A stretch of DNA of 64,000 nucleotides from Candidatus Uhrbacteria bacterium. Lineage in GTDB: Bacteria; Patescibacteriota; Patescibacteriia; UBA9934. Below, piece by piece: positions 20,324 through 61,724 of the stretch (the first letter of the stretch is position 1; every line of letters starts with the position of its first letter). Position numbers and translations under genes: made by a program. Under the pieces are notes generated by a model. The model saw only the letters and a program-made list of their open reading frames with translations, did no database searches and had not been told where the DNA came from. The stretch spans positions 9,890-73,889 of the forward strand of contig JABHCP010000007.1 in the NCBI GenBank assembly GCA_018673485.1, read 5' to 3'.

Positions 20324-20345
20324 TTTCATAATGACACAGTAGAAA

Positions 20346-20385: not shown

Positions 20386-20393
20386 CTTTTTTG

Positions 20394-42647: not shown

Positions 42648-42683
42648 GAAAAAAACACCCATCTCGAGGAGTCCAAAGACGAC

Positions 42684-42761: not shown

Positions 42762-42777
42762 TATGCATTTTCTATGT

Positions 42778-43026: not shown

Positions 43027-43181
43027 AGCGTTCGGTTCTCCCTCTTCCCACCCTTCGATATAACTCAGGGTGCCCTGAGCTTGTCGAATGGACAAGGGGG
43101 AGTTAGCTGTGCCAGTCCGAAGCTCTGCAGAGCGAAGGCTGGAGGGGGTTGTCGTTTGATCGAATTCGATCTAATTAAGTA

Positions 43182-44193: not shown

Positions 44194-44205
44194 ATAGCGT
44201 TCAGT

Positions 44206-44239
44206 CCTCCCCCTTCCCAAGGGGGAGCTAGAGGGGGTT
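44206..44239. repeat. GC-rich palindromic repeat CCTCCCCCTTCCCAAGGGGGAGCTAGAGGGGGTT
   Basis: member of the family listed at 25987..26027. Confidence 0.6.
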
Positions 44240-44380
44240 GCCATTGAGTAAATAAAATCAGGAGACATTCCTCCTGTTTCCGATTGCATTGTATCAAGTT
44301 ATTGCTAGTTTGATCAAAAAGGTTTCACTAAGGTCCCGATCGGCCCTTTAGTGAAACCTTCTTGACGTCGACGGCTTGGC

Positions 44381-45061: not shown

Positions 45062-45119
45062 TAAATAAAGTCTAATTTAAAAAAACAGCCAATTTTAGTT
45101 AAAAAAGCACGCTTTTATA

Positions 45120-45148
45120 TTGACAAGAGCGTGTTTTTGTGTTATATT
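45120..45148 (+). promoter_or_regulatory. sigma70-type promoter (TTGACA-17-TATATT)
   Basis: directed at the 45282 ORF, which has a GGAGG RBS. Confidence 0.45.
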
Positions 45149-45281
45149 TTGCAGTCCTGCTGAGTCTACGGACCAGCTGACAACCTTCCTTGGGCCTACC
45201 ACACAATTCGTGAGGGGGCAGCAAAGAAGGATCCTTTTTCAGGACCTACTTCGTGAAAGCGGAGGGGTTGCTGGAGAAATC

Positions 45282-45656
45282 ATGAACGATAAAGCAGACG
45301 TGATCATGTGCGCCCACCAAGGCACCTTCATGGTGTACCCTCACCCCGAAGGGCGCCTGGCACACCTCTACGAGGAAGTCACGGTCAATATCAGAGGGAA
45401 CGACTTTGTGAAGCCAAAGGTCTGGATCCTTGGTGCGTCCTGGGCCGACACGATTCTCGGAACGCACGGGACTCGTCAGGAGGTGGATACCCTCAAGCGC
45501 TTGATGCGTAGTGAGGGCATCGTATACCAGGTCACGCAAGACGAGATGGTCCCATGCTGCCAGCCTGCCCGTAAGAACAACGAGTGGGTCTGGTACGACT
45601 CTGACCGTGCCCAGCTGCGAACTGACTCGCCTTTGGCGATCTTCTTTAGCGGCTAG
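45282..45656 (+). CDS. hypothetical protein (124 aa) in a high-GC islet
   Basis: RBS GGAGG 9 nt upstream of the ATG; long GC hairpin and T-run downstream. Confidence 0.45.
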   Translation: MNDKADVIMCAHQGTFMVYPHPEGRLAHLYEEVTVNIRGNDFVKPKVWILGASWADTILGTHGTRQEVDTLKRLMRSEGIVYQVTQDEMVPCCQPARKNNEWVWYDSDRAQLRTDSPLAIFFSG

Positions 45657-45885
45657 ACTTAACAGCTTTTTTCTTCCCCCTCTCTCAACCCCCATCAAAC
45701 CTGAAGGACTCCCATGTCCAACTCACGGTTTGTGGGGGGTTCTTCTTTTATAGAAAAAATAGACAACTTACCGCTTAGATGGCCCTGTGTTTTTTTTCTA
45801 TCCATTCGATGTTCGATCGGACATTTTATGAATTTATCAAAATTGCTTTTGAGGCTGATTTAAAGACTGCGTTTAGAGATATCAA

Positions 45886-45921
45886 TTTTCATAATACGTT
45901 CGATCGAACGTATTATGAAAA
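45886..45921. repeat. 36-bp perfect palindrome centred on CGATCG
   Basis: TTTTCATAATACGTTCGATCGAACGTATTATGAAAA; a degenerate relative at 45806..45826. Confidence 0.8.
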
Positions 45922-45982
45922 TAAAGCATCAACGCCCCACTCGTTGTACGAGTTGGGGCGTAGTTGATTGCGCACGAGGGCG

Positions 45983-46666
45983 CTAGCGGGATCCTCGAGC
46001 TGATCCCCACGTTCCTTCTTTGCGTGAACTGCCGAAGATGTATTCGGGTTGGGTCTCTTCGGATATGTCTTGGATGACGACTTGGTGCCCGTCGCCTTGA
46101 AGGACCGAGCTCGCTCCAACTGGCATGATGAACTGTTGGTCGACGTCGCGGGTGATGATCATGCCCTGCGGTTCGAGCAGCGGGCTGTTCTGGTGGTTGT
46201 CCCAGATCAGCATGTCGTTGATCGTGTAGGTCTGGTCAGGTTCGAACCGACCAGAAACCTCCTCGATGATCAGCGTGCCGCCGTCGCGTTCGAAGACGCC
46301 AGTCGTGAAGCCCGTGAATGGGTGGTCGTTGTTCGCATCCTTGAAGATCGAGTTGACCCCAAAGAGCTTGGGCTGGGTCATGCCACGAAGGTGAGCACTT
46401 GAGTCACCGACATAGACTACCACCTTGTGGGCCTGTGGTGTCACAAAGAGCATGAAGTTCGGATCCTCGCAATCGGCTGAGGTGCTGGAGAGCTCTTGCT
46501 CCAGACAGGTCTCGATCGTGGCGAGAAGTTCTGCCTTTCCTGTGTCACGACCACCGTACAATGTAGCCAGGTTGACGCCGCACATGAGAAGAGCTGCGAT
46601 AACGAGTAACACCGTTAGATCAGAGACCTTCAAGGTGATTTCTTTGGAGAAGAATTTGTTTGCCAT
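45983..46666 (-). CDS. hypothetical membrane-anchored protein in a high-GC islet
   Basis: N-terminal TM anchor; 227 aa. Confidence 0.5.
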   Translation of the reverse strand: MANKFFSKEITLKVSDLTVLLVIAALLMCGVNLATLYGGRDTGKAELLATIETCLEQELSSTSADCEDPNFMLFVTPQAHKVVVYVGDSSAHLRGMTQPKLFGVNSIFKDANNDHPFTGFTTGVFERDGGTLIIEEVSGRFEPDQTYTINDMLIWDNHQNSPLLEPQGMIITRDVDQQFIMPVGASSVLQGDGHQVVIQDISEETQPEYIFGSSRKEGTWGSARGSR

Positions 46667-46787
46667 GATTGCTCCCGATCGAGGTCGGATCCAGTGTTCG
46701 CGCTTACATTAGCTTAGAAGTATTCTGCGGTCAAGATTCGACGGCAACCCCCTGGCGTCCCCCTTGGGAAGGGGGACATTTAATTAA

Positions 46788-46820
46788 AACAAAAGAACCA
46801 CCTGAGGTGGTTCTTCCTGT
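46788..46820 (-). terminator. intrinsic terminator of tig
   Basis: GAACCACC-TGA-GGTGGTTC followed by a T-run on the minus strand. Confidence 0.6.
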
Positions 46821-46851
46821 GCACTGCGAACTGAGCACTGCGTACTATATT

Positions 46852-48135
46852 CTACTTCACCATCTTGTCTCGTAGAATGTCTAGTGTTTTCTTATTCTTC
46901 ATCTGCATTTCTACGTAGTCGCGATATTGTGGTGATTGGATGTACTTCTTCTGGTCTTCTTTCTCGTACTTCTCTGCTACTTTTACGATCTCAGCATCCA
47001 ATTCCTTTGCTTCAACCTTTACGTCTTCGAGCTTTGCAATTTCCTTTAGCAGCAATGCTACTTTTACTCGAGTGAGTGCGTTGGTTGCGAAGTCGAGTTT
47101 CATGTCAGCGAAAGTTTTTCCAATTGATGTTAGGTATTCTTCAAACTCTACACCGCGTTGGGCTACAGCTTGCTTCATTTCATTGATCATCTTATCAACT
47201 TCTTGATTCACTAGCAGGTCTGGGATGTCATCAAAGTTTGATTTACCGGAAAGCAATTCAAGCATTTCCTTTTCTTGTCGTCGATCCTCTTCAACCTGAT
47301 TTTCCTTTGTAAGATTCTCGATTAGTTTACCCTCAAGGTCTTTAACGTCCTTCATTCCCAAGTTCTTAGCAAAAGCGTCGTCAAACTTTGGAGTGTCAAG
47401 ATTGAATATTTCCTTAACCTCAACTGTGAACTCGATCTCAGCTCCAGCCATGTGCTTTTGGTAGTGATCCTTTGGGAACGTTAGAGTGAAAGTTTTTACA
47501 TCTCCTTCTTTTGATCCTAATATTTGATCGATGAAGCCATCAACGTAGTAGCTCTCTGATGTGTAGATGCCGTGGTCTTGTCCTTCCCCACCTTCAACTA
47601 CAACACCATCCTTTTTCATTGTCAGATTAACTACAACCTTGTCGCCTTGTTTGAGCTCAGTTCCTGACTTGGCTCGAACTTCTTTTGTCTGCATGCCAAC
47701 TAAGTCCTTCTTTGCTTGATCAATAAGCTCTTGCTTTGGAGCAGAGTCCTGCTTTTTTATTGATAGCTTGCTGTAGTCAGCGAGCTTTTGGATCGAGGGC
47801 ATAAGTGAGACCTCAGCAGTGAATTCCATATCGTTTCCTGGAGCCATTTTGTTCATGTTGAAGTATGGCTGGCCAACAGAGTCGATCTTCTCTTCCAAAA
47901 GTGCTTTCATAAAAGCTGTGCGAACAAGCCCTTCAGTTGCTTCCTCAAGAATCTTCATTTCACCAACACGCTTCTCGATGGTCGCGTAGTCAGCTTTTCC
48001 TGGTCGAAATCCTGCGATCTCCGTATTTTCACCAATCCGCGTTGCAGCTTCCTTCATCGCTTCTTTAACCTGCTCAGCTGGAATTGTAATAGTGAAAGTG
48101 ACCTTATTCTTCTCTGTTTTTACTGTGTGTGACAT
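46852..48135 (-). CDS. tig: trigger factor
   Basis: N-terminal ribosome-binding domain, PPIase and C-terminal domain architecture; start taken at MSHTVKTEK. Confidence 0.9.
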   Translation of the reverse strand: MSHTVKTEKNKVTFTITIPAEQVKEAMKEAATRIGENTEIAGFRPGKADYATIEKRVGEMKILEEATEGLVRTAFMKALLEEKIDSVGQPYFNMNKMAPGNDMEFTAEVSLMPSIQKLADYSKLSIKKQDSAPKQELIDQAKKDLVGMQTKEVRAKSGTELKQGDKVVVNLTMKKDGVVVEGGEGQDHGIYTSESYYVDGFIDQILGSKEGDVKTFTLTFPKDHYQKHMAGAEIEFTVEVKEIFNLDTPKFDDAFAKNLGMKDVKDLEGKLIENLTKENQVEEDRRQEKEMLELLSGKSNFDDIPDLLVNQEVDKMINEMKQAVAQRGVEFEEYLTSIGKTFADMKLDFATNALTRVKVALLLKEIAKLEDVKVEAKELDAEIVKVAEKYEKEDQKKYIQSPQYRDYVEMQMKNKKTLDILRDKMVK

Positions 48136-48258
48136 AAAATTTATTCTCAAAGTGATTTGATTTACGAGCGGAGTATGTCGAATTTAGAGGATTTTGTCAA
48201 TGATTTGATCAGAACACAGACGTAAGACTTTAGACTCCAGAGCAAGGTCCGGTATTCT

Positions 48259-48288
48259 CAAGGTTGAACCTTTAAAGGTTCAACCTTG
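48259..48288. repeat. 30-bp perfect palindrome CAAGGTTGAACCTTTAAAGGTTCAACCTTG
   Basis: relative of 20294..20323. Confidence 0.7.
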
Positions 48289-48385
48289 GCGGTAAACCAT
48301 TGATATTATTGAGTATTTGTGATTACATGCACTTGTCGAAATCAATCGGCGAGTTTCTGGCGAGTACGTCAGATTGGGGTGAGTA

Positions 48386-48922
48386 ATGAGTGTTCCAATG
48401 ATCGGTGATAGCGGTGTGCTCCTGCAGGTTTCAACGATGAGGGCCAATGCTGTCATGCGACTTCTGAGTATGGAGTGCTTCCGTGTAGTGCCCTTCCTGA
48501 TCGATGCTCGTGAGGAGTTCCGTCCCAGCGACTGGTTTAGGACCATCGGTGAGTTCCATGAGTGGGTCATGCAGAGTTCAGAGACGCAGTTTGCTGACAA
48601 GCTCCGTGCGGCATGGGGACAGATCGAAGCGGATCTATATGCCAGAAATATCCCAGCTAACCTTGAAGTTGTGGCCAACCGCATTCGAGCGTTCAAGCTG
48701 CCTAAGGGTACGGAGCGGATTGAATGGTCCCGGGATGGCAAGAACATTGTCATTGAAATCAACGACTGGCATGACGAATTCGATAGCTTGGAACGCTTCC
48801 TGGAACTTCTTGCAAAAGATGCTTGGCGATCGAACGATGACGTACATGCGCATAGCGTCATCCGGCTCGCTCAAGAACTCCTCGCGCTCGACAACTTCCC
48901 GATCCGTAGACCTACCGACTAG
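48386..48922 (+). CDS. hypothetical protein (178 aa) in a high-GC islet
   Basis: the plus-strand ORF has a normal composition; the overlapping minus ORF is a Ser/Arg-rich artefact. Confidence 0.5.
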   Translation: MSVPMIGDSGVLLQVSTMRANAVMRLLSMECFRVVPFLIDAREEFRPSDWFRTIGEFHEWVMQSSETQFADKLRAAWGQIEADLYARNIPANLEVVANRIRAFKLPKGTERIEWSRDGKNIVIEINDWHDEFDSLERFLELLAKDAWRSNDDVHAHSVIRLAQELLALDNFPIRRPTD

Positions 48923-48927
48923 GTAGG

Positions 48928-48947
48928 CTGAGTTCGATCGAACTCAG
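48928..48947. repeat. 20-bp perfect palindrome CTGAGTTCGATCGAACTCAG
   Basis: CGATCG-centred family; immediately after the 48922 stop. Confidence 0.7.
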
Positions 48948-48949
48948 CG

Positions 48950-48986
48950 TCCCCGCGCCCACTCGGCGCGGGGTTCTTGTTTTTTA
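48950..48986 (+). terminator. intrinsic terminator
   Basis: CCCCGCGCC-CACT-GGCGCGGGG followed by TTCTTGTTTTTT. Confidence 0.65.
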
Positions 48987-49055
48987 AAACGAAAGAGCCG
49001 ACTCGCGCCGGCCCTTTTTTATCTGTGTACTGTGAACTGCGTACTGTGCACTTCA

Positions 49056-51047
49056 TTAAATAATCAATGCCACGATAAGCAGTGCAATGATGTTTACGAT
49101 CTTGATCATTGGGTTGATCGCAGGTCCGGCTGTGTCCTTGTAAGGATCTCCAACAGTATCTCCTGTGATTGATGCTTCGTGTGCTAGTGATTTCTTTCCA
49201 CCGTAGTTTCCAATCTCGATGTACTTCTTTGCATTGTCCCAAGCACCACCACCTGTGGTCATAGAGATTGCTAGGAAGAGTCCAGTTACGATTGATCCGA
49301 TTAGCAATCCACCGAGCGCCTCAGGCCCTAGGAATACACCAACGAGAATTGTAGCGACAATTGGAATAAGTGCCGGAACGATCATCTGACCAAGCGCCGC
49401 CTTTGTAACAATGTCAACGCAGGCGCCGTATTCTGGTTTTCCAGTTCCGTCCATGATTCCTTTAATCTCTTTAAACTGACGTCGAACTTCTTCAACGACT
49501 TTTGCTGCAGCGACTCCAACAGCCTCCATGGCAAACGCTGCAAACATATACGGAAGTAGCCCACCAATTAGTAGTCCAGCTATAACGTATGGATTTGAAA
49601 GTGAGAATGTAAATGCATGACCAGCAGCTAAGAGCTCTTCAGTGTAGGTTGCAAATAATACAGTTGCAGCGAGCCCTGCTGACGCGATTGCGTATCCTTT
49701 TGTAACTGCTTTTGTTGTATTTCCAACAGCGTCTAGTTTGTCTGTTGTTTCTCGCACTTCAGCTGAGAGTCCTGCCATTTCAGCAATTCCTCCAGCGTTA
49801 TCTGTAACTGGTCCGTAAGCGTCGAGTGTCACGATTAGTCCTGCAAGGGATAGCATAGACATAACAGCCATCGCTGCTCCGTAGATGTCAGCAAGCGCGT
49901 ATGAGGTCAAAAGCCCAGCAACGATTACGAGTACTGGCAATGCAGTAGATCGCATTGAAAGCGCCAATCCTGAGATTACGTTTGTTCCGTGTCCAGTCTG
50001 TGAGGCCTCGGCAACCTTACGTACAGGCTTGTAGTCAGTAGATGTGTAGTACTCAGTGATTACAACCATTAGTGCAGTCACAACTAGTCCAACTATTAAT
50101 GACCAGAAAATGCTATTTGCATCGATGCCTTCAACTCCACCTAACAACCAGTGTGTTAGTGGGTAGAAAGCTGCGGCAGATAGTAGTCCGCTAACAATTA
50201 GTCCTTTGTAAAGTGCAGTCATGATTCCCTGCTTTGATCCAAGTCGGATAAAGTAGATTCCGATAATTGTTGCAATAATTGCCACTGCTCCAACAGCGAG
50301 TGGGAATGTAATGATGGCCTCAACGTCTCCAAAGATTAGAAGACCAACAAGCATAGCTGCCATTGTTGAAACCACGTAGGTTTCATAGAGGTCAGCTGCC
50401 ATTCCAGCGCAATCTCCAACGTTGTCTCCAACATTGTCAGCAATCACTGCTGGGTTACGTGGATCATCTTCTGGAATTCCGGCTTCAACTTTCCCAACAA
50501 GGTCAGCTCCAACGTCGGCTGCCTTTGTAAAGATTCCACCACCTAGTCGTGCAAAGACGGAGATTAATGAACCTCCAAATCCAAGCCCGATTAGAGCATG
50601 TACGTCGTGTGTGAAGTAGTAAAAACCAGCTGATCCTAGGAGTCCAAGTGTTACCACGAAGAGTCCAGTAACAGCACCTGACTTAACTGCAACGTTAAGT
50701 GCTGGCGCGAGCCCATCTTTTGCTGCAACTGTTGTGCGTACGTTTGCGCGAACAGATACAAGCATTCCAATGTAGCCTGCGATTCCAGACAAGATTGCAC
50801 CGAGCGCGAATCCTGCTGCTGTGGTCCAGTTTAGGAAGAACCCGAGAAGTAGAAATACTACAACTCCGATAAGTCCAATCACGCGATACTGTCGCGCAAG
50901 GTAGGCGTTTGCTCCTTCTTGAATTGCAAGAGCAATACCTTTCATTTTTCCTTCACCTGAAGGAAGCTTCATGATCCATGAGATCAAAAAGACGGTATAA
51001 ATGATCGCTGCGATCGAGATCAACATCGCTATAAGCGTTATATCCAT
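49056..51047 (-). CDS. hppA: membrane-bound proton/sodium-translocating pyrophosphatase
   Basis: [21 protein letters not shown] signature; 663 aa polytopic. Confidence 0.9.
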
Positions 51048-51186
51048 AGAAAGATCTAGGTAATAAGTAATTTATAAGCGGTGTAATGATACGAATCGTG
51101 AGCGGTATTGTCAACGCATTGAGTTTATAAGCCCCACCACCTTGCCTATAGAAAGGTCACCAGTGTTAGTTAAAAAATAGCTGATT

Positions 51187-52611
51187 TTGATTGACTTTTG
51201 GGTCATCTTTTGCTATGGTTATCTATGTTCTAAACATTACCCCATTGGTATAAAAGAGCGATTTAAACAATTCATTGTCGCACATACGCTCAAGGCTGTT
51301 CGTATCCTTATTAGGATCAAGCCTGTTTTTTTGCGTGCACTCAATTCTATATCTGCACCACTAAAGGCTGTTGCGAAAGTTTTGGTATTTGTTCTTGTGC
51401 CAGTTTATCAATTGCTATTTTCAATTAAAAGACATTTGGTTGCGGTTTATAAGCCTGCAAAAAACAAGATGATGTTCTTGATAGCTAATCGGTATACGGT
51501 TCACGGTGTGATCATTGCTATGGTGCTTGTGGTGGGTGTATTGAATTTACAAACCAGTATAGTTCGCGCTGAGGGGTTTGGTGAACGTAGTCTGATGTAT
51601 GCGCTTGTTGCAGAAGATGCTGGGCGGATCGTTCAGGAGTATGCAAGCGATGACAGCGCGTTAAGTGTTTCGGCGGTTGAATATCGAGAACGTACCGGAG
51701 TATCCATGGCCCTTACTCAAATGAGCGCGGTTTTAGAAGAAGGCACAGTTGTACCTGAGGATGGATTATATGGTGGAGGCGCGCTTGTCGCAGCACCCCT
51801 ATCAGACACGCAAGAAGTATCTTTCGTCGCAACTGACAGGTCAGACATTGAGTCCTATGCAGTTGCAGGTGGTGACACTTTGTCATCAATTGCAAATAAA
51901 TATGATCTTTCAATTAATACTTTGCTTTGGGCAAACAATTTAAGTGTAACCTCGGTGCTGCAACCCGGAGACACACTCACAATCTTGCCACTCGACGGCG
52001 TAGTGCACACAGTTTCAAGCGGAGATACCATTGCGCAGATTTCATATGATTACGATATCGATCAGCAAACAATCCTTGATTATAACGGAATGAGTAGCGG
52101 TTCGGTTCTATCAATCGGTAATGAGCTTGTTGTGCCAGGTGGTGAAAAGCAAGCTTCAACTCGATCAACAAGCAGCGCTATAAGTTCATTGTTTACCGCG
52201 CCATCAACAGCCAGCGCGCCGACCACCATCTCTTCTGGTCAAGCGACTGGTTCTGGCTATCTTGTGTGGCCAACAGACTTGCGTGTTATCACACAATATT
52301 ACAACTGGCGTCACACCGGCCTTGATGTTGACTGTTATTATGATAACTATAACTACGCATCAGACGCTGGATACGTTACTTTCTCTGGATGGAATGGCGG
52401 CTACGGATATGTAATTGACGTTGATCATGGAAATGGAATTGTAACTCGTTACGCACATAACGCGGCATTATACGTGTCAGCTGGTCAGTACGTGTCAGCC
52501 GGAGAAGCAATTGGACTTTGTGGTACCACCGGATATTCAACAGGAACACATCTGCATTACGAGGTGATTGTAAACGGAGTAAAGAAAAACCCACTGGAAT
52601 ACATTCGATAA
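51187..52611 (+). CDS. LysM-domain M23 family peptidase
   Basis: two LysM motifs and a C-terminal M23 HxxxD...HLHYE block; the true start may be internal. Confidence 0.8.
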   Translation: MIDFWVIFCYGYLCSKHYPIGIKERFKQFIVAHTLKAVRILIRIKPVFLRALNSISAPLKAVAKVLVFVLVPVYQLLFSIKRHLVAVYKPAKNKMMFLIANRYTVHGVIIAMVLVVGVLNLQTSIVRAEGFGERSLMYALVAEDAGRIVQEYASDDSALSVSAVEYRERTGVSMALTQMSAVLEEGTVVPEDGLYGGGALVAAPLSDTQEVSFVATDRSDIESYAVAGGDTLSSIANKYDLSINTLLWANNLSVTSVLQPGDTLTILPLDGVVHTVSSGDTIAQISYDYDIDQQTILDYNGMSSGSVLSIGNELVVPGGEKQASTRSTSSAISSLFTAPSTASAPTTISSGQATGSGYLVWPTDLRVITQYYNWRHTGLDVDCYYDNYNYASDAGYVTFSGWNGGYGYVIDVDHGNGIVTRYAHNAALYVSAGQYVSAGEAIGLCGTTGYSTGTHLHYEVIVNGVKKNPLEYIR

Positions 52612-52617
52612 TAAATT

Positions 52618-52652
52618 TTAAAAACACCTTGCTTCACGCAGGGTGTTTTTTT
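52618..52652 (+). terminator. intrinsic terminator
   Basis: AAAAACACC...GGGTGTTTTTTT. Confidence 0.6.
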
Positions 52653-52672
52653 ACTTGGTAAAAATGATTGTT

Positions 52673-52710
52673 ATTTTCATGATAGGTTCGATCGAACCTA
52701 TCATGAAAAT
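52673..52710. repeat. 38-bp perfect palindrome centred on CGATCG
   Basis: ATTTTCATGATAGGTTCGATCGAACCTATCATGAAAAT abutting the stop codon of 52710..53252. Confidence 0.8.
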
Positions 52711-53252
52711 TATATTTCTGAAGCATGGAATATTTTCACCCAATCCGAGTTTTTAAATTTTATGCTAAAAAGCCTAGAAAGGTCGTCGCTTACATTCTTT
52801 TTGGTAGTCCAAACACTTCGGTGCATTTGCTTGAATCCGATTCGTTTTAATAGGTGTCTAATTTGTCTTCGAATTAGCTTTTGACTTTCAGGTATATCAA
52901 AAGATACAACACACAATTGGTTTGAGGGCAGATAGTTGGCGTTCATACTTTTTAATCTAAGGTATTCTTCAATCCCTTTTTCTGTAAGCGATATATAGTA
53001 TTGATCAGCGATTTTGTTTTCTAAAATAAATTTCTTTTGACGCAATTTTTTCAGTGTTTGTTTTCGGCTCCATTTTTCTTTGTTGTGCAAATACTTTCTT
53101 GCTCCGTTTATCCCAAACCTAACCACAAGACCTGGCCTAGCTAGGCCGAAGTGGAGATCGGATATTGAATTACCAATTTCAACAAGAAGATTTGATGTTC
53201 TAGAGTTAGTTATTAGTGGATATTTGTTTTCACGATGTGTTCGATCGGACAT
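52710..53252 (-). CDS. hypothetical protein with winged-HTH-like N-terminal region and Cas2/PaaX-C-like C-terminal motif
   Basis: YISLTEKGIEEYL wing; VVSFDIPESQKLIRRQIRHLLKRIGFKQMHRSVWT resembles the Cas2/PaaX_C core; gene is bracketed by CGATCG palindromes. Confidence 0.45.
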   Translation of the reverse strand: MSDRTHRENKYPLITNSRTSNLLVEIGNSISDLHFGLARPGLVVRFGINGARKYLHNKEKWSRKQTLKKLRQKKFILENKIADQYYISLTEKGIEEYLRLKSMNANYLPSNQLCVVSFDIPESQKLIRRQIRHLLKRIGFKQMHRSVWTTKKNVSDDLSRLFSIKFKNSDWVKIFHASEI

Positions 53253-53256
53253 ATCT
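53235..53256. repeat. imperfect CGATCG-centred palindrome overlapping the start codon
   Basis: GATGTGTTCGATCGGACATATC. Confidence 0.5.
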
Positions 53257-53276
53257 TGATTATTATTTATTGCGAG

Positions 53277-54794
53277 CTAGAACCTTGTACATCGATATCT
53301 TAGCGCCTCGGCGAGGTGGTTGATTTCTATATTTTCAGATGCGCATAGGTCTGCGATTGTTCTGGCAACTTTTAGTGTGCGTGTATAAGCGCGAGCTGAT
53401 AGTTGATACTGATCGATCGCTTTTTTTAAAATCACAATACTAGAATCATCAAGTTTGCAGAATTTCCCTAAAAGCCTGGTCGTTAGTTGATCATTAGTTG
53501 CGATAGGTAACTTTTTGTATCTAGACAGTTGTATTTGTCGGGCCTTGGTTATTCTTTTTTTGATGTTTTTTGAGGATTCGCTGACTTGGTTTGATGTTAG
53601 TTTGTCGAATTCAACTCTAGGCACATTAATTGTAATATCAATCCGGTCCAATATCGGACCTGATAGTTTTCTTTTGTATTTTTGGATTTGTCCTGGGGTG
53701 CATTCGCATGGTCTCTTTGGGTCGTGCAGAAAACCACACGAGCAAGGGTTCATCGCCGCAACTAGCATGAAGTTTGAGGGAAAGGTGATTGTTCCAGATG
53801 CGCGTGCGATAGTGACACACTTGTCTTCGAGTGGTTGCCGTAGATTCTCGATTGTCTTGCGAGTAAATTCAGCAAACTCATCCATAAATAGTATTCCATT
53901 GTGCGCGAGTGAGACTTCACCCGGCCTGGGCCACGTTCCCCCACCGATTAGTGCAGTGCTCGAACTTGTGTGATGTGGATGTCTAAAAGGCCTCTCGGTT
54001 AGTAGATAGGTTTCATCAAGAAGTCCAGAGATAGAATATATCTTTGTAGTTTCAAGTGATTCATCAAATTGCAAAGATGGTAGTATCGATGGAATTGCTC
54101 TGGCCAGCATGGTTTTTCCAGATCCTGGTGGCCCAACCATTAGCATATTGTGATTTCCAGCAGCGGCGATTTCCAGGGCGCGTTTAACATGATCCTGCCC
54201 CCGAACGTCTGAAAAGTCGATTAGGTTTTTAGGAGTTGGTTTTTTGGAGGGCTTGTGAGCGTGACAGTCGAGCTCTGAGTTCTCTCGTAGCTTGCTGACA
54301 AGCTCCTGGAGCGTGTTTGCGGTGCATGTACTAACATCCTTCACGATTGATGCTTCATGGGCGTTGTCGGGTGCTACTACCACGCGATCAAGTTTTCGAT
54401 CTTTGCACATTGTGGCAGCCAAGAGCGCACCTTGCACTGGTCTGATCTCGCCGTCGAGCGATAGCTCTCCTAAGAAGACTGATGTTTTTGTTATGTTCGT
54501 CTGTGATATCGCGCCAGAGGCGATTAATATGCTCAAAGCAATGGGTAGGTCATACATTGGTCCTTGTTTTTTGAGGTTTGCCGGTGCGAGGTTGACTGTG
54601 ACTCGCGTTCTAGGAAAGGTTAGCCCACTATTTTTAATAGCAGCGCGAATACGTTCGCGCGATTCGGAAATTGCCGCATCTGGCAATCCTACTATGGTAA
54701 ACCTTGGTAAGCCTGAAGAAATGTCAGCCTCCACTCGCACTGGGACGCTTTTGAGCCCAACGTGGGCTGAAGAATAAATAAAAGAAGATCCCAT
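53277..54794 (-). CDS. YifB/ComM-family Mg-chelatase-like AAA+ ATPase
   Basis: N-terminal Lon-protease-like ChlI region, Walker A GPPGSGKT; 505 aa. Confidence 0.85.
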   Translation of the reverse strand: MGSSFIYSSAHVGLKSVPVRVEADISSGLPRFTIVGLPDAAISESRERIRAAIKNSGLTFPRTRVTVNLAPANLKKQGPMYDLPIALSILIASGAISQTNITKTSVFLGELSLDGEIRPVQGALLAATMCKDRKLDRVVVAPDNAHEASIVKDVSTCTANTLQELVSKLRENSELDCHAHKPSKKPTPKNLIDFSDVRGQDHVKRALEIAAAGNHNMLMVGPPGSGKTMLARAIPSILPSLQFDESLETTKIYSISGLLDETYLLTERPFRHPHHTSSSTALIGGGTWPRPGEVSLAHNGILFMDEFAEFTRKTIENLRQPLEDKCVTIARASGTITFPSNFMLVAAMNPCSCGFLHDPKRPCECTPGQIQKYKRKLSGPILDRIDITINVPRVEFDKLTSNQVSESSKNIKKRITKARQIQLSRYKKLPIATNDQLTTRLLGKFCKLDDSSIVILKKAIDQYQLSARAYTRTLKVARTIADLCASENIEINHLAEALRYRCTRF

Positions 54795-54836
54795 ACACCA
54801 AAAGTGTTGGGAATGTTGAATTAGTAGCGCCTACTA

Positions 54837-55286
54837 TTAACGCTTCTTCATGTCCGTACTAAAACTATACCACAGGGTGATGAAAACTCCAGAGACGATG
54901 AGGATATCTGCTAGGTTGATTGCGGAAAGATTGAAAAATATTAGATAATCCGTCGTAAATCCATTTATGATTCTGTCGATAAAATTGTTGAGAGCGCCCG
55001 CAAGGATGAGTATCGTGGGTGCTGCGTATACTGATGTCTCCTTATAGAACTTGATCGCTAGGTAGAAGATTGAAACGATAATGATTCCTGAGACGACCAA
55101 CGTTGCCCATATAGGAATCGGTATGCTAAATGCGATACCGTAGTTTCTGTGCGTGAAAAGGCAGAAGATTGAATCCAAACAACCTTCCTGGAAAAAAGAA
55201 GGCTGTTTTATTGCTACATATTTGAATGCCCCGTCGATTATAGTTATCGCGATGGCGATGGATAGGGCGAGCGCGTTACGTTTCAT
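54837..55286 (-). CDS. lspA: lipoprotein signal peptidase II
   Basis: NYGIAFSI and FIDRIINGFTTDY conserved boxes; 4 TM. Confidence 0.8.
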   Translation of the reverse strand: MKRNALALSIAIAITIIDGAFKYVAIKQPSFFQEGCLDSIFCLFTHRNYGIAFSIPIPIWATLVVSGIIIVSIFYLAIKFYKETSVYAAPTILILAGALNNFIDRIINGFTTDYLIFFNLSAINLADILIVSGVFITLWYSFSTDMKKR

Positions 55287-55660
55287 TACAATTCTTGCGT
55301 TAGAGTCTTTTTACATGCAACACATGATGTCGATGTTGGTCGAGCGCGCAATCTATCTTCTGTAATATCAGTTTCGCAGTATTTACACACTCCGTATGCT
55401 GATTTTTCGATTCGATCTATTGCGTTTTTAATATCTCTGACTTCTTTTTCCAATTTGTCCTCTAGTGCCAGGTTGTTGCTATAAGTTGCTACTTCTCCAG
55501 CATTTTCATCCTCGTCATCACCATACTCTGGAAATTTGGATACAAAATCAGCACGCGTTGCCTTTGGGTCTTGTTTGGCAAAGCCAGATAGGTCTTTGAT
55601 TATTTGTGATAGTTCTTTTTCGAGACGTTCTTTCATCTCAAGAACAAATTGTTCATTCAT
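55286..55660 (-). CDS. DksA/TraR-family C4 zinc-finger protein
   Basis: coiled-coil N-terminus and CKYC...CVAC finger. Confidence 0.75.
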   Translation of the reverse strand: MNEQFVLEMKERLEKELSQIIKDLSGFAKQDPKATRADFVSKFPEYGDDEDENAGEVATYSNNLALEDKLEKEVRDIKNAIDRIEKSAYGVCKYCETDITEDRLRARPTSTSCVACKKTLTQEL

Positions 55661-56161
55661 ACGTAACTGATTATCTCATTATTTATCAAAATTATCCAGC
55701 AACTTCATGAAAAGTGTCTTTCGATCATAAAATAAAAATGAGAAAAAGAAAAGAGCGCGTGCTCTACGGACTGTATTTATATAAATATTCCGGAGCTCGC
55801 GCCCACGAATGGGTGTAGGGACACCGTTGTGGGCGTGGGGTTCTGCTCAGATTAGTACATCTGTTCAAAACTCCACGTCCATCGGCGTCTAGACCTATAT
55901 ATCCCATTAAAGGACAACTGCCCTGCCATGTACTGGCTGGACCGGTAAGACGGTTTTGCCACGTTCGATCCGCTTGTTCCCCAAGAATGCAAGCGAACTA
56001 ACACCGCAGCGCAGTAGGGCTGTTCCCCGAAAGTGGGTTCGGGAAACTTCCCCTGACGTCGTCAGGTGTTGTAGAAAGAGCTATGTTCTATATATATTGT
56101 ATTCAGTTGAACACATATTGTCAAACGTGCAATACCCTGTGTTAACAGGGTATTCTTGCTA

Positions 56162-56234
56162 TGTGGATAAAATATTTACACATTACTTATGCATGCCTGT
56201 GGATAAGTTGGGGTTTATCACAGGTTTATCCACA
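56162..56234. promoter_or_regulatory. cluster of three perfect DnaA boxes
   Basis: TGTGGATAA at 56162 and 56198 (reverse) and TTATCCACA at 56226 within 73 bp. Confidence 0.55.
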
Positions 56235-56243
56235 GGCTGTGTA

Positions 56244-57443
56244 TTACCAGCAAAGATAGATGGAACGGTTGTTTATAGCGATTGTATCGAGCTTACTGAG
56301 TACCGATGAACCTAAAGTGTTGTCAGTTACGCTCTCAATTATTACGAAGGTATGTGCATTTGGCTTGCACTGACTAGTTACCTGAATATTATCCAAGCTT
56401 GGCGAAGTATTGTGGTTTGTTGTAAGTAAATATGAGGGAGTTTGTGTCATGTGCAACTCTGTATCGCCTGAGGAAAGGTGAAGAAAGTGAGTGTCTTGTT
56501 CTGTGGCTATAGATATCTCGGGCTCATATACTGATCTGATCTCAGAGACGGTTGATTTATCATCTAATGTCAACGCTATGGTAGACAAACTGGATATTGA
56601 GTTGAGATTTCTTGCAATCTCAGCAAGTACATCGATCTCAAAGTTTTCTTCTATTAACAATGAATAGAATATATTTTTATCAGTATCCTGCGTTACCACA
56701 AGCTTCCAAGGACTCGATAGACTGTTGATTATTTCACTCATCGGCTCTGATAGATAGCTCGACAATGTATTTGTCGTTTCTTGTTCTTTCTCTGTTGATG
56801 TGATTTGAGCAATAACGTCAGTTTGTTCTGGAATCTGCAATTCAGTTTTTATTTGCGCCTTTGCTCCAAGTCCGTGCAATGTTAGCCCTTTACTATGAAC
56901 TGATAGCCAGCCATTTTGATCAATAGATCGAATTTTACCGTCAAAGAATGGATTTAAGGCATGAAAGGTGAGTCGCGTGTTTGGATTCTGGTTGTTCTCG
57001 ATCGTATCTGTACTAATTAGCGTTCTACCATTGATTTCGATCGAACTCAGCCCTATCTGATCGAATTGAGCCAGTTTATGCTCGCCAAGCTCGTTATCAA
57101 TAGATATTTCGCTTATTTGACCCAGATTATTGAAATGCAGAGCGAATTCCCTGTTTGATAGTTCAATTGCGTCATCTAATGTCAAAGGCCCCAAAATTGC
57201 TGCAGCTCCAAGGTTTTGACTTAGCAATTCAGTGCTTCCAACGTTTTTAAACACCTGAATCGAAATATTGGTCTCATCGGAATGAAAATTACTTACCGTA
57301 TCGCGCGTAATCCAAAGTCGAAACACCACGAGCGCCAATAAAACAACACACCCAGCATAGATGTACGTTTTAACATTCGACCGCAGATGCCTTTTAGGCA
57401 CCTGAGCGTGCATTGAAATATTCAAGTCCTGCATGCTTAGCAT
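56244..57443 (-). CDS. hypothetical membrane-anchored protein (399 aa)
   Basis: single N-terminal TM; Ser/Thr/Asn-rich. Confidence 0.5.
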   Translation of the reverse strand: MLSMQDLNISMHAQVPKRHLRSNVKTYIYAGCVVLLALVVFRLWITRDTVSNFHSDETNISIQVFKNVGSTELLSQNLGAAAILGPLTLDDAIELSNREFALHFNNLGQISEISIDNELGEHKLAQFDQIGLSSIEINGRTLISTDTIENNQNPNTRLTFHALNPFFDGKIRSIDQNGWLSVHSKGLTLHGLGAKAQIKTELQIPEQTDVIAQITSTEKEQETTNTLSSYLSEPMSEIINSLSSPWKLVVTQDTDKNIFYSLLIEENFEIDVLAEIARNLNSISSLSTIALTLDDKSTVSEIRSVYEPEISIATEQDTHFLHLSSGDTELHMTQTPSYLLTTNHNTSPSLDNIQVTSQCKPNAHTFVIIESVTDNTLGSSVLSKLDTIAINNRSIYLCW

Positions 57444-57502
57444 TCTATCGCAGTTAAGAGATCTTAAAAAGCGAAAGAGCTTCTATATCGTATTTCGTTT
57501 GT

Positions 57503-57516
57503 TGTCCGATCGGACA
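57503..57516. repeat. palindrome TGTCCGATCGGACA
   Basis: CGATCG-centred family. Confidence 0.6.
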
Positions 57517-57580
57517 TCAAGTGAACTCACACATAGTCGCTTTTGAGTTGATTCTAAAGACCATATTTATGAACGCCAAT

Positions 57581-57614
57581 GTTCGCGTTAGGTTCGATCG
57601 AACCTAACGCGAAC
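57581..57614. repeat. 34-bp perfect palindrome GTTCGCGTTAGGTTCGATCGAACCTAACGCGAAC
   Basis: CGATCG-centred family; shares the TAGGTTCGATCGAACCTA core with 52673..52710. Confidence 0.8.
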
Positions 57615-57639
57615 AGAAGATGCTCGCATTGGAATTTAA

Positions 57640-57668
57640 AAGAACCGCATTTACGCGGTTCTTTTTTG
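57640..57668. terminator. bidirectional intrinsic terminator 3' of pnp
   Basis: AAAAGAACCGC-ATTTA-GCGGTTCTTTTTT. Confidence 0.7.
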
Positions 57669-57675
57669 CTATCCA

Positions 57676-59985
57676 TTAATCCTTTTTTGGATGTGCTGGT
57701 GGGGTTGGGCGTGGGGGTCGGGGGCTGTCGTGTTCGCGACGTGGTGATCGTGGCCCGCTTGGGCGTCCACCTCCGTGTCGTGGCCCTCTGTCGCCTCCTG
57801 GGCGTCCACCTCCGGCTCCAGGCTTTTGAGCCTTCGCCTTCATTTCCTCAGTGTAGACGTTGCCCTCAGCCTGCTTCATAGAAAGACTTGTCTTTCCTGA
57901 TGGGTCTACCTCAATAACCTTGATTTTCACTTTGTCACCAAGCTTTACGATGTCTCCTACTTTATCAACTCGCCATGGTGCAAGTTCTGAAACGTGCACA
58001 AGTCCGTCGCGACCTGGTAGGTAGCTAACGATGGCACCAAAGTCCATTAGGCGATCAACTGTTCCTTCAAATTCTTCGCCAGCCTGCACTTCTCGTACGA
58101 TGTCTTCGACAATCTTTTGAGCTTTATCTGCTGACTCACCGTCTGGCGCTGTGATAAATAGTAGTCCGTCATCTTCAATGTCGATAGCACTTACTCCAGT
58201 GTCAGCAATGATTCCATTGATAACTTTTCCACCTGAACCAATAACTTCTCGAATTTTATCAGGATCAATTTGCATCTTAGTAATTCTTGGAGCGTACTTT
58301 GAAAGTTCTGCTCTAGGCTCTGCTATTGCGCTTTCGATTGCGTCGAGCACTTCCATTCTAGCCGTGTATGACTGCGTTAGTGCCTGTTTGATGATGTCGA
58401 TTGTAAGACCATTGGTCTTTGTATCCATCTGGATTGCCGTAATTCCATCACGAGATCCTGTAATTTTGAAGTCCATCCCACCTAGACCGTCTTCGATGTC
58501 TTGCAGGTCGGTAAGAACTTTCCAGTCTGTTCCGTTTGATGCAAGCCCCATCGCGATTCCAGCAACTGGTGCCTTAATTGGTACCCCAGCGTCCATAAGA
58601 GCGAGCGTTGAACCACAGGTGCTGGCCATTGAGCTTGATCCATTGGAATCCAGTGTCTCTGACACAACTCGAATTGTGTAAGGGAAGTCTTCCTTTAAAG
58701 GAATCATCGGGTCGAGTGCTTTCTCTGCAAGCGCACCGTGACCAATATCTCGTCGACTAGCGCCTCGCAATGGCTTTGCTTCACCAACAGAGTATGGAGG
58801 GAAGTTGTAGTGGTGCATGTATCGCTTTTGTCCACTGATTTCCATTCCGTCGAGTGTCTGCTCGTCACCTGGAGAACCAAGCGTACAAATTGAAAGTGAC
58901 TGTGTTGTTCCACGCATGAAGTGTCCTGTTCCGTGCACGCGTGGTAGAAGTGCGACCTCAGATACAAGATTTCGAATTTCTGTAAGCTTACGTCCATCGA
59001 TTCGTTTGTCTTGCTCCAAAATCATTCGTGATGCTTCGTCTTGTGTGAAGTTATAGATCAAGTCTTTTGCGAATTTGATCTCATCAGCCTCGTGACCTTC
59101 TGATTCGAGGTATTTCTCTAGTTGTTTTGCAAGTTCACTTTTCGCTTCATTGATTTGAGTCTTGTTGGTCAGTGACTCAGATAGGATCATCTTTTCAAAG
59201 ATCGGTCGCATGAAGTCTTTTGACTTTTGTGCTAGTGGCGCACGTTTTTCCAAAGTCTCAAGTTCCTTTTCAGTGTTCAGTGCTTCGAATGTAAGTTTTT
59301 CTTTTCCGACGGTAGATCGAACCTTTTCAATAAGGTCGATAATCGGTTGAATGCTTTGCATTCCAAACTCAAATGCTTTACTTATATCTTCTTCAACTGC
59401 TTCGTTGGCTCGAGCCTCAATCATGATTACCTTTTCCGATGTTCCTGCAACGTCCAGATCGAAATCAGTTTCCTCACGCTCAGCGTATGTTGGGTTTAGA
59501 ATAAACCCTTCATCTTTTTGAGATACTCGAAGCGCACCGATCGGTCCATTCCAAGGGATGTCACTTATGTGAAGCGCACACGATGCACCAATAAGTCCCA
59601 AGATGTCTGGGTCATTCTCTCCGTCAAACGATAGAACTGTAACGATTACTTGAATATCGTTTCGAATTCGATCATCAAAGAGTGGTCGAAGAGATCGGTC
59701 AATAAATCGACCAATAAGCACAGCGTCGTCTGTTGGACGACCTTCACGCTTGATGAATCGAGATCCTTTGATTCGACCAGCAGCGTAGAGCTTTTCTTCA
59801 TAGTCGACCATTAGTGGAAAGAACGGAAGTCCTTCACGTTTGGTCTTAGACATTACAGCGGTAGCAAGAACAACTGTCTCACCAAGCTGAATAAGGCAGC
59901 TAGCGTTTGCTGACTGCGCGAACTTTCCCGTTTTAATTGTCAGCTCTTTGCCGCCAATGTCACAGGAGAACACTTTCTGTTCCAT
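57676..59985 (-). CDS. pnp: polynucleotide phosphorylase with Arg/Gly-rich C-terminal tail
   Basis: two RNase PH domains, KH and S1; FIKREGRPTDDAVLIGRFIDRSLRPLF; start taken at MEQKVFS. Confidence 0.9.
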   Translation of the reverse strand: MEQKVFSCDIGGKELTIKTGKFAQSANASCLIQLGETVVLATAVMSKTKREGLPFFPLMVDYEEKLYAAGRIKGSRFIKREGRPTDDAVLIGRFIDRSLRPLFDDRIRNDIQVIVTVLSFDGENDPDILGLIGASCALHISDIPWNGPIGALRVSQKDEGFILNPTYAEREETDFDLDVAGTSEKVIMIEARANEAVEEDISKAFEFGMQSIQPIIDLIEKVRSTVGKEKLTFEALNTEKELETLEKRAPLAQKSKDFMRPIFEKMILSESLTNKTQINEAKSELAKQLEKYLESEGHEADEIKFAKDLIYNFTQDEASRMILEQDKRIDGRKLTEIRNLVSEVALLPRVHGTGHFMRGTTQSLSICTLGSPGDEQTLDGMEISGQKRYMHHYNFPPYSVGEAKPLRGASRRDIGHGALAEKALDPMIPLKEDFPYTIRVVSETLDSNGSSSMASTCGSTLALMDAGVPIKAPVAGIAMGLASNGTDWKVLTDLQDIEDGLGGMDFKITGSRDGITAIQMDTKTNGLTIDIIKQALTQSYTARMEVLDAIESAIAEPRAELSKYAPRITKMQIDPDKIREVIGSGGKVINGIIADTGVSAIDIEDDGLLFITAPDGESADKAQKIVEDIVREVQAGEEFEGTVDRLMDFGAIVSYLPGRDGLVHVSELAPWRVDKVGDIVKLGDKVKIKVIEVDPSGKTSLSMKQAEGNVYTEEMKAKAQKPGAGGGRPGGDRGPRHGGGRPSGPRSPRREHDSPRPPRPTPPAHPKKD

Positions 59986-60268
59986 ATGTATTGTTGGGGA
60001 TTTCCCAGTCGGCGCATCGCGGTGTCGAAATTTCCGCTCTTTGCTCGCCGTACATAACAGTACGTCTCGCAGAGTGCTCAATTTCTCCTAGCGCTGCATC
60101 CAGCTGGAAAAATCCCTGAGTTATCGCTCGGTTTGAAGCTGAAGGTTTCAAAGAAATGAATCTTTGACGACCTTGTGGTCTCAAACCGAAGCGTTAAGTA
60201 AGTTATCGAACGAGTAGAGAAGATCGAGTGCTCGGTCTGCTCTACCCGTTTGAAAACGGGTCTTAGTG

Positions 60269-60349
60269 ACCTCCCCCTGCCCCTCCTTCGTAAGGAGGGG
60301 AGATTCGATCGAGATCCTCCCCCTTACGAAGGGGGAGATAGAGGGGGTC
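60269..60349. repeat. tandem GC-rich palindromic repeats
   Basis: CCTCCCCCTGCCCCTCCTTCGTAAGGAGGGG...CCTCCCCCTTACGAAGGGGGAGATAGAGGGGGTC in the pnp leader. Confidence 0.6.
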
Positions 60350-60357
60350 TTCGAAGC

Positions 60358-60912
60358 TCACTTTTTCTTTACCGGAGCTTTTCGTTTCTTTACAGGTGGC
60401 TTTCGTTTTGAAATCTCTGGCATTAGAAACTTTTCTGGTTCAGCTGATAGGTTTGTGTAAAAATCTGTAACTTCTAAAAGTTCTGAAGAAGTTGATTCGC
60501 GGAATGACGCTACGTGAAACAGGCGCCCTTTGCCACGTACGTAATCTGCAAGTGGAGCGAAGTCACCGTCACCGGACACCATTACTACAACGTCGAGCAT
60601 ATCAAGCATGCGTACAACATCGATCGCCATACCAACATCCCAGTTTGCTTTTTTGTGACCTGAATCGTATTCGACCAAGTCTTTTGCTATTACTTCGATA
60701 TTATTTTTCTCCAGCGCCTCCAAGAATGGACTTTCGTCCCCTGCCTCGGTTGTTACCGCATAGGCAAGTGCACGAACTAGCTGTCCGTTGCCAGTAGTTT
60801 CTTCGACGATCTTGGGATAGTTCACTTTACGATTAAATACATTGCGCGCGCTGTAGTACATGTTTTGCACATCGATGAAAACGCCAACTCGGCGATTTGG
60901 GGTCTCTAACAT
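60358..60912 (-). CDS. NYN-domain (LabA/DUF88-like) putative ribonuclease
   Basis: GVFIDVQNMYYS and VVVMVSGDGDFAPL catalytic blocks; Lys-rich tail. Confidence 0.75.
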   Translation of the reverse strand: MLETPNRRVGVFIDVQNMYYSARNVFNRKVNYPKIVEETTGNGQLVRALAYAVTTEAGDESPFLEALEKNNIEVIAKDLVEYDSGHKKANWDVGMAIDVVRMLDMLDVVVMVSGDGDFAPLADYVRGKGRLFHVASFRESTSSELLEVTDFYTNLSAEPEKFLMPEISKRKPPVKKRKAPVKKK

Positions 60913-60996
60913 AAAAAGGGGGTAAAGGATTTAAAAATGGGTCGTTATTAAAAAGACTCAAGCCCGGCCGAATTATCGAGCCGGGCTTAATATAAA

Positions 60997-61272
60997 TTAA
61001 TCATTCAAAGGTCGGATCTTGAGGTCTGTGATCAACGTTTCGTATGCTGCCTTGTCTTCACGTCGTAGGTATCGCATAAGACGTCGTCGCTCTGTAACTT
61101 TTTTTACAAGTCCACGTCGAGAGCTGAAATCCTTTTTGTGAGTACGCAAGTGCTTTGTCAGCTCTTTTACTTCCTCAGTTAGGATCGCGATCTGTACTTG
61201 TGGGGAACCTGTATCTTTATTATGAGTTTTGAACTTCTCAATGATCTTTTGCTTTTTCTTCTTGTCGAGCAT
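60997..61272 (-). CDS. rpsO: 30S ribosomal protein S15
   Basis: 91 aa, SPQVQIAILTEEVKELTKHLRTHKKDFSSRRGL. Confidence 0.9.
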   Translation of the reverse strand: MLDKKKKQKIIEKFKTHNKDTGSPQVQIAILTEEVKELTKHLRTHKKDFSSRRGLVKKVTERRRLMRYLRREDKAAYETLITDLKIRPLND

Positions 61273-61724
61273 ATTTTTGCTTTATGCCAATGATCGGAGT
61301 AAAGCGTCGCTCGCGTGTCGCTAAACCTCGGTCAAAGGTCTGATTTATGTGCTTATACTAGCTGGATTGTTGATTTGTGTCAAGAAAAGACGGATGCCGG
61401 GGTGGATGGCGTATCCACCCCGGCATAAGCAGCGCTCAAGTCACGATTGGGTCTACTGCGAGCACCAACCCGCATCCCAAACAGAGCCTTGAATTGCTTT
61501 TGGGCCTCTCTTTTGTGGGGGGGCGCAAGTTATGGATGAGTACCGGCTGGTTCTCACTTGCTCTAAGAGTGGTCCCAGCGGCAACGCCAGGTGCTTCTGC
61601 TTTCACTTTTGGCTGGCGCAAGCAGTTGCAGGTACATACTGACACGCCTCGACAATTAGGTCAAAAGGTAGCAATCAAGCTTTTGAAGTGCATTATTAAT
61701 TCTTGTGTCGTATAATGTAGACAT

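Follow-up and report, generated by a model that had tools for sequence, protein, structure and literature searches.

Three perfect copies of the DnaA box TTATCCACA lie within 73 bp of one another in the window analyzed here (the whole 64,000-nucleotide stretch of DNA), where they form an intergenic array upstream of a promoter for a structured RNA of about 345 nt that belongs to no known family. The best reading of the array is that it constitutes a conserved set of high-affinity-type DnaA boxes outside the origin, which would serve as a secondary docking or regulatory site. More specifically, DnaA may act at this site as a transcription factor for the RNA promoter, a proposal to which we give even credence. 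The locus is laid out as follows, in window coordinates.

55286-55660, minus strand: gene for a dksA/traR-type zinc-finger protein (Pfam zf-dskA_traR), which heads dksA-lspA-comM downstream of the RNA
55743-56088, minus strand: gene for the unclassified, structured RNA of about 345 nt, with its own promoter and terminator and with covariation
56096-56124, minus strand: promoter of the RNA gene, with -35 TTGACA (56124-56119), a 17-bp spacer and -10 TACAAT (56101-56096)
56131-56154, no strand assigned: hairpin with a 9-bp stem (AATACCCTG, 6-nt loop, CAGGGTATT), an A-tract on one side and a T-tract on the other
56162-56170, minus strand: DnaA box 3, perfect, oriented as box 2
56198-56206, minus strand: DnaA box 2, perfect, reading TTATCCACA on the RNA-sense strand and directed toward the promoter
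56214-56222, plus strand: degenerate middle box TTTATCACA, reading TGTGATAAA on the RNA-sense strand
56226-56234, plus strand: DnaA box R1, perfect, reading TGTGGATAA on the minus (RNA-sense) strand and directed away from the promoter
56238-56246, minus strand: tentative weak box with two mismatches (TAATACACA), overlapping the stop codon of the upstream gene
56244-57443, minus strand: conserved hypothetical gene encoding 399 aa, with no Pfam hit and a C-terminus ending in CW before the stop codon

The sequence-only reading had described three perfect boxes and one degenerate box within 73 bp, and an exact-match scan of both strands bears this out: the only three perfect boxes of the 64-kb window begin at 56162, 56198 and 56226, all inside 56162-56234, and the degenerate box begins at 56214. 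Dinucleotide shuffles yield an expectation of 0.60 perfect boxes per window, and the number of three-box clusters within 73 bp computed from this shuffle rate is approximately 1.4e-7 per 64 kb. The triple perfect-box cluster is therefore not a product of chance. When one mismatch is allowed, the window holds 18 sites versus 15.3 expected by chance, which represents no excess. In approximately 175 kb of sequence from the clade, every perfect box sits in the array. The same earlier reading was also correct in ranking these boxes above those flanking dnaA, since the flanks carry only 1-mismatch boxes (at 39940, 41583, 41600 and 41649), as do the corresponding regions of two relatives. With three perfect and one or two weak boxes in about 85 bp of intergenic DNA, the local density is high. 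The weak box at 56238-56246 reads TAATCCACA in the divergent homologue L093 and is not kept in all relatives. Additional low-affinity boxes between boxes 2 and 3 were considered and rejected because the intervening sequence is not conserved among relatives.

Relatives of the locus were collected by two routes. A genome scan with ComM (encoded at 53277-54794) yielded L011, L010, L083, L012, L063 and L013, with ComM identities of 55-78%, and a metagenome scan with an invariant motif of the RNA yielded the more divergent homologues L090, L100, L101, L103, L091 and L093. The ComM-found relatives are Patescibacteria, several of them labelled Candidatus Uhrbacteria, and DnaA homologues bear the same taxonomic labels. 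All 12 distinct sequences share one gene order, namely pnp, the hypothetical gene with its terminal CW, the boxes, the promoter, the RNA, the terminator, dksA, lspA and comM; the box array and the RNA are found together in each of these 12 loci. The DksA-like protein also occurs in identical form on 19 metagenome contigs, and all contigs that include the spacer carry the three boxes. Neither array nor RNA is found beside comM in other Patescibacteria loci. Among the other comM loci, clusters of at least three near-consensus boxes occur only at probable origins. Two Patescibacteria loci, L060 (Saccharibacteria, near 8282) and L073 (Kaiserbacteria, near 12912), have three near-consensus boxes a few kilobases from comM, which suggests that comM is often origin-proximal in Patescibacteria.

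Within the array it is the 9-mers that are conserved, whereas flanking and inter-box sequence varies among relatives. Box R1 is TGTGGATAA or TGGGGATAA in the relatives, and its start lies 28 bp from that of box 2 in 10 of the 12 distinct sequences, as read from the sequences by eye. Box 2 is retained with no more than one mismatch in 12 of 12, and in 11 of them its start lies 80-84 bp from the start of the -35 hexamer. For L013, L063 and L091 the box-2 spacings were corrected from the sequences, because a scripted table had used the weak middle box; in these three relatives the middle box is replaced by TTATCCAAA, which has the opposite orientation and lies 2 bp before box 2. Box 3 is present with zero or one mismatch in nine of the 12, at 34-36 bp after box 2, and is absent in L093, L103 and L091, which retain the promoter. 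The gap from box 3 to the -35 hexamer measures 37 bp in the subclade of the window and 39-40 bp in the L012 subclade, and it is held even though the DNA that fills it has been replaced between the two subclades. Other spacers of the same locus drift: from 5 to 36 bp between the stop codon and R1, and from 50 to 105 bp (356 bp in L103) between the end of the RNA and dksA.

The promoter that faces this array is of the sigma-70 type and matches 11 of 12 consensus positions; both it and its transcription start are predictions from the consensus alone. Its hexamers are conserved in all relatives, with TTGACA, TTGACT or TTTACA at -35 and TACAAT, TATTAT or TATGAT at -10; the -10 element of L100 is less clear (CTATGCT by pattern search). 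The boxes thereby stand in fixed register with conserved promoter hexamers, which is the arrangement expected if DnaA regulates the promoter. The adjoining promoter region is moderately AT-rich.

On its other side the array abuts the hypothetical gene, whose stop codon lies 9 bp before box R1. Since the hairpin at 56131-56154 lies past box 3, the boxes fall between the stop codon and a terminator-like structure. Four different complementary stems occur at this position (in the window, L013, L093 and L091), a pattern of covariation, and the hairpin is weak or absent in the subclade of L012, L090, L100 and L101. It probably serves the upstream gene as an intrinsic terminator that works in both directions. 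The intergenic spacer between dksA/traR and the hypothetical gene, given earlier as 580 nt, measures 583 nt. Farther upstream, the PNPase gene (57676-60081, minus strand) encodes a Gly/Arg/Pro-rich C-terminal tail of about 70 residues beyond the S1 domain (...GGGRPGGDRGPRHGGGRPSGPRSPRREHDSPRPPRPTPPAHPKKD).

Most of the spacer is devoted to the RNA. A GC-rich structured segment had been recognized beside the boxes, and indeed this DNA folds better than shuffled sequences on both strands (z = -5.1 and -5.8). What the description had missed is that the segment is a minus-strand RNA gene and that the boxes lie upstream of its promoter. The gene ends in an intrinsic terminator with a stem at 55753-55804 and a U-tract at 55743-55752. 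Alignments of six and then eleven homologues were made, and the RNAalifold consensus structure comprises 49 pairs, 16 of which have changed on both sides. Cells in paired columns are complementary in 95.7% of cases, versus 46-51% when partners are slid, and none of 500 shuffles matches the observed covariation. Helix 1 contains many G-U cells that would read as A-C mismatches on the opposite strand; therefore, the minus strand is the one transcribed, in agreement with the promoter and the terminator. Separate, weak promoter-like sites in the 82-nt gap ahead of dksA point to independent transcription of the RNA. Its invariant motifs include AGGGGAAGUUUCCCGAA and an internal loop formed by GAGUCUUG and CAGAACCC.

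Searches for known relatives of this RNA were consistently negative. Rfam 15, which includes RNase P, tmRNA, 6S and SRP RNAs, gives no relevant family anywhere in the window at gathering scores, and permissive scans reveal none in the spacer, in the 355-nt RNA stretch by itself at E <= 10, or in 10 relatives. ARAGORN detects no tmRNA, an nhmmer profile of the RNA finds no copy in the other 70 comM loci (other Patescibacteria included), and nothing similar occurs in viral contigs. An 'idnO ncRNA motif' match over the array and promoter of L011 (4466-4673) scores 40.5 bits versus a gathering score of 100, and we judged it a chance match; the alignment is AT-rich and of high bias, and the match is absent from the scan of the window itself. 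Metagenome pattern matches in L092, L095 and L102 were likewise set aside as an unrelated terminator hairpin of a gut organism. Small ORFs within the RNA region are not conserved between relatives. Pairing of the RNA against the 5′ regions of the genes in the window by RNAduplex carries little information, because loops of any size are allowed; dnaA was no outlier.

A diverged RNase P RNA was given particular consideration because rnpA lies in the window and because RNase P RNAs of CPR bacteria are diverged and can escape standard models (PMC8172020). Short resemblances are present (GGGAAGU..CC and CAGAACCC). Manual inspection reveals no P4-type long-range helix, and the first of these segments, which resembles CR-I, closes a local 10-bp hairpin instead. 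We treat the RNA as unclassified, with a diverged rnpB as a possible residual candidate. A different GC-rich island, at 16000-20500, reaches 55.6% G+C versus about 44% elsewhere and has no rRNA or other Rfam hit; called ORFs overlap across the two strands at 16.9-18.4 kb, and one of 540 aa spans 18543-20165.

The probable replication origin of this organism can be placed, and it does not coincide with the array. The relevant features are these.

38660-39781: dnaN
39790-39861, plus strand: probable oriC unwinding module, consisting of an AT-rich stretch, seven trios, GGGG and the tandem imperfect boxes TGTGGACAG and TGTGTAAAA
40056-41540: dnaA, with rpmH and rnpA on its other side

Third-position GC skew, computed per gene and expressed on the plus strand, averages -0.19 to the left of 38.6 kb, whatever the orientation of the genes, and +0.12 to the right. 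The best step lies at 37.3-39.9 kb: a single-step fit is best between PBP1A and dnaN (SSE 376), and a step in the dnaA-dnaN spacer gives an SSE of 394. By comparison, a step at 56.2 kb yields an SSE of 717 versus a total of 764. The skew also flips between dnaA and dnaN in the relatives L104 and L105. In a BUS-type origin, DnaA-trios (NAN, with the consensus 3′-GAT-5′) follow within 16 bp of a box and are themselves followed by AT-rich DNA (PMC8287927). A scan with rules drawn from this architecture (a box with no more than two mismatches, a spacer of no more than 16 bp and at least three NAN trios; PMC8287927) gives its top-scoring match of the whole window at 39819-39861 in the dnaA-dnaN spacer, where the trios TAT AAA TAA TAG TAG TAA TAG occupy 39819-39839 and the preceding DNA is 85% A+T. 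A module composed of CTGTCCACA, a GC spacer, (C/T)TA trios and AT-rich DNA is likewise located just upstream of dnaN in L104 and L105. From these sequences, the oriC of the clade is likely the BUS module between dnaA and dnaN. At none of the three perfect array boxes does a run of at least three NAN trios occur within 16 bp, such that the array shares the boxes of a BUS-type origin and has neither its trios nor a skew switch.

The sequence-only reading had offered, as one of three options, that the array could be the true origin, displaced from dnaA, and had itself proposed that a GC-skew switch mapping to dnaA-dnaN with no second signal would speak against this idea. Such a switch is what the GC3 data reveal, with no second signal at 56.2 kb. 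Given the skew flip and the BUS module, the displaced origin is therefore rejected. Two observations concern dnaA itself. The rpmH-dnaA spacer holds three 1-mismatch boxes at 41583-41657 (TGTGAATAA, ATATCCACA and TGTGGATAT), with similar clusters in L104 (9825-9913), which probably serve dnaA autoregulation or form the second half of a bipartite origin region. In addition, the longest dnaA ORF (494 aa) probably includes about 25 extra codons at its 5′ end (41466-41540), since homologues are about 465 aa with 95% query coverage.

Relative to this origin the array is close and consistently placed. The distance from array to dnaA, given earlier as 15 kb, is about 14.6-14.7 kb in the window, and it is approximately 12.5 kb in L105 and 8.7 kb in L104, always on the rpmH side of dnaA in these three genomes. 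The array is thereby both conserved among relatives and near oriC, two hallmarks of non-origin DnaA-box clusters. The RNA and the dksA operon are transcribed toward oriC and are thus head-on to the fork. More generally, over about 19 kb to one side of oriC (42400-61300), almost all genes are head-on to the replication fork, including tig, the H+-pyrophosphatase gene, comM, the RNA gene, pnp and rpsO, and the same is seen to the left of dnaA in L104 and L105. This orientation is unusual for highly expressed genes.

The encoded DnaA protein appears well suited to the boxes. Its C-terminal domain aligns with E. coli domain IV (PDB 1J1V) at E = 3e-18 and retains the PRQ, P.IG and GGRDHTT..HA segments of the DNA-contacting motif, which we take to hold the base-contacting residues R399, P423, D433, H434, T435 and H439 of 1J1V. 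Because this motif is kept, TTATCCACA should be the cognate box of the organism.

How might DnaA control the RNA promoter? Given the boxes, spacing, motifs and covariation observed, and an origin that lies elsewhere, we infer DnaA binding in vivo as well as any effect on transcription. The three consensus boxes would be occupied whenever free DnaA is present, in either nucleotide state. From its fixed position 37-40 bp upstream of the -35 hexamer, the resulting complex would tune the output of the promoter, and perhaps also read-through out of the upstream gene, to DnaA availability and replication status. Lying 9-15 kb from oriC, the array would be duplicated just after initiation, and it would necessarily also hold a few DnaA molecules.

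The main support for such a DnaA-regulated promoter is that the distance from box to promoter is held while other spacers drift. The box centers lie at about -77, -113 and -141 from the predicted start, off the core promoter, and simple occlusion is therefore excluded. The sign of the effect is not inferable, because the boxes leave the core promoter uncovered and its sequence is already close to consensus. Some observations weigh against promoter control. A near-consensus promoter should need no activator, one subclade carries a terminator-like hairpin between box 3 and the -35 hexamer, and three relatives (L093, L103 and L091) lack box 3 and have the promoter. The conserved spacing could also reflect the needs of a complex made of DnaA only.

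The main rival to promoter control, and one compatible with it, is that the array controls the initiator itself, either as a sink of the B. subtilis or Streptomyces box-cluster type that is duplicated early after initiation, or as a switch of nucleotide state through datA-like hydrolysis or DARS-like release of ADP. In this case transcription, whether read-through from upstream or initiation at the RNA promoter, would gate the occupancy of the boxes, comparable to glyVXY read-through at datA. We regard such a DnaA-homeostasis element as possible without expecting it. The boxes are of the highest-affinity type, as opposed to the imperfect ones of oriC, and the locus lies on the same side of oriC, at 9-15 kb, in three genomes and would be replicated right after initiation. 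A single box set against two co-oriented ones recalls the DARS core (PMC6868365), and in L013, L063 and L091 the layout is an opposed box, 8 bp, a weak box, 2 bp and a strong box. Similarly, datA adjoins a stable-RNA operon whose read-through regulates it (PMC10950094), and the upstream gene includes the array boxes in its transcribed 3′ region. However, three or four boxes provide very little titration capacity, and the gap between DARS boxes I and II is 5 bp rather than the 19 bp (strong opposed pair) or 7-8 bp (weak box) of the array. Furthermore, homeostasis leaves the constant distance to the promoter unexplained, and neither DARS nor datA is documented beyond E. coli and its relatives. 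A DnaA-titrating site and a DnaA-regulated promoter had both been proposed from the sequence at the outset; both survive, and conservation strengthens them, with DnaA binding itself still presumed.

We consider two further explanations improbable, the latter by far the more so. One holds that DnaA, or another protein specific for the same inverted motif, blocks read-through from pnp and the hypothetical gene into the RNA gene, or anchors an oriC-proximal domain, leaving both DnaA activity and the RNA promoter unaffected. The boxes do fall within the 3′ untranslated region of the upstream transcript and immediately precede the terminator hairpin, and a domain-stabilizing role of oriC-proximal DnaA sites has been proposed for Bacillus (PMC2533591). 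But the boxes and their spacing persist in the L012 subclade, where the hairpin is missing or weak, and it is the exact consensus 9-mers of DnaA that are conserved, which points to DnaA itself. The other explanation, which we consider close to untenable, is that the array is a displaced or second origin, with DnaA assembling at its three boxes to unwind neighboring AT-rich DNA. In its favor, the array boxes are the best in the window, the adjoining promoter region is moderately AT-rich, and most genes at 42-56 kb are on the minus strand, co-directional with a leftward fork from 56.2 kb. These points are outweighed by the skew step and its conservation in L104 and L105, by the top BUS module in the dnaA-dnaN spacer and the absence of trios at the array, and by the sequence adjoining the boxes, which is filled with a stop codon, a covarying hairpin and a promoter.

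Beyond control of the RNA promoter by DnaA, one can imagine that array and RNA form a single module that, in candidate-phyla-radiation bacteria, couples a large structured RNA of a new class to the DnaA cycle. This module could take two forms: the RNA might be a DnaA-controlled, cell-cycle-coupled regulator, or the array might be a datA/DARS-type switch gated by transcription of the RNA gene. Even taken jointly, these two forms seem to us doubtful.

To our knowledge, nothing experimental is known about the control of replication initiation in the ultra-small, uncultured Patescibacteria. For this lineage, the array is a specific candidate for a secondary site of DnaA control, and it is testable with recombinant DnaA and synthetic DNA. 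The 345-nt RNA is a separate lead in its own right, with a strong predicted promoter, covariation support and no known family. If DnaA controls this RNA, it would be a new kind of member of a DnaA regulon; if a datA/DARS-type switch proves true, it would extend such elements beyond E. coli and its relatives for the first time. Both non-origin clusters of DnaA boxes and promoters regulated by DnaA are already known kinds of element. What is new here is the Patescibacteria lineage, the rigid geometry, the combination of imperfect boxes at the origin with perfect ones in a nearby array, and, as the target, a large structured RNA of no known family.

Promoter control from upstream DnaA boxes has precedents in sda, ywlC and yydA of B. 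subtilis (PMC2533591) and in gidA of P. aeruginosa, which is controlled by boxes upstream of its promoter in oriCII (PMC13438810). The stable DnaA-binding sites of B. subtilis (Ishikawa et al., 2007; PMC2533591) are, like the array, intergenic high-affinity clusters outside oriC that mostly lie near it and are conserved among relatives. Some of them directly control an adjacent promoter, and a role in setting active initiator levels has been suggested (PMC2533591). Unlike these clusters, the array belongs to Patescibacteria, comprises only three or four boxes, and maintains strictly fixed spacing both between boxes and between boxes and promoter. Its adjacent gene encodes a large structured RNA of no known class, whereas that of the B. 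subtilis clusters encodes a protein. P. aeruginosa oriCII (PMC13438810) is similarly a box cluster near but apart from the working origin and upstream of a regulated promoter. It is, however, an origin-like region beside gidA-parAB, while the array has no origin-like unwinding module and its downstream gene is an RNA gene.

Among the elements of E. coli, datA (PMC10950094) resembles the array as a non-origin box cluster by a strongly transcribed stable-RNA operon and crossed by read-through. It differs in that it requires an IHF site, promotes hydrolysis of ATP-DnaA, and sits downstream of its RNA genes, whereas the array is upstream of one. The cores of DARS1 and DARS2 (PMC6868365) have, like the array, three boxes of which one is opposed to two co-oriented ones, with an optional degenerate fourth. 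The orientation pattern therefore matches, but the gaps do not (5 bp between DARS boxes I and II, as against the wider gaps of the array, whose boxes 2 and 3 are 25-27 bp apart), and the array does not have the DARS layout. Finally, BUS-type oriC regions (PMC8287927) share their DnaA boxes with the array and add the trios within 16 bp and the AT-rich DNA that distinguish an origin from an element of this kind.
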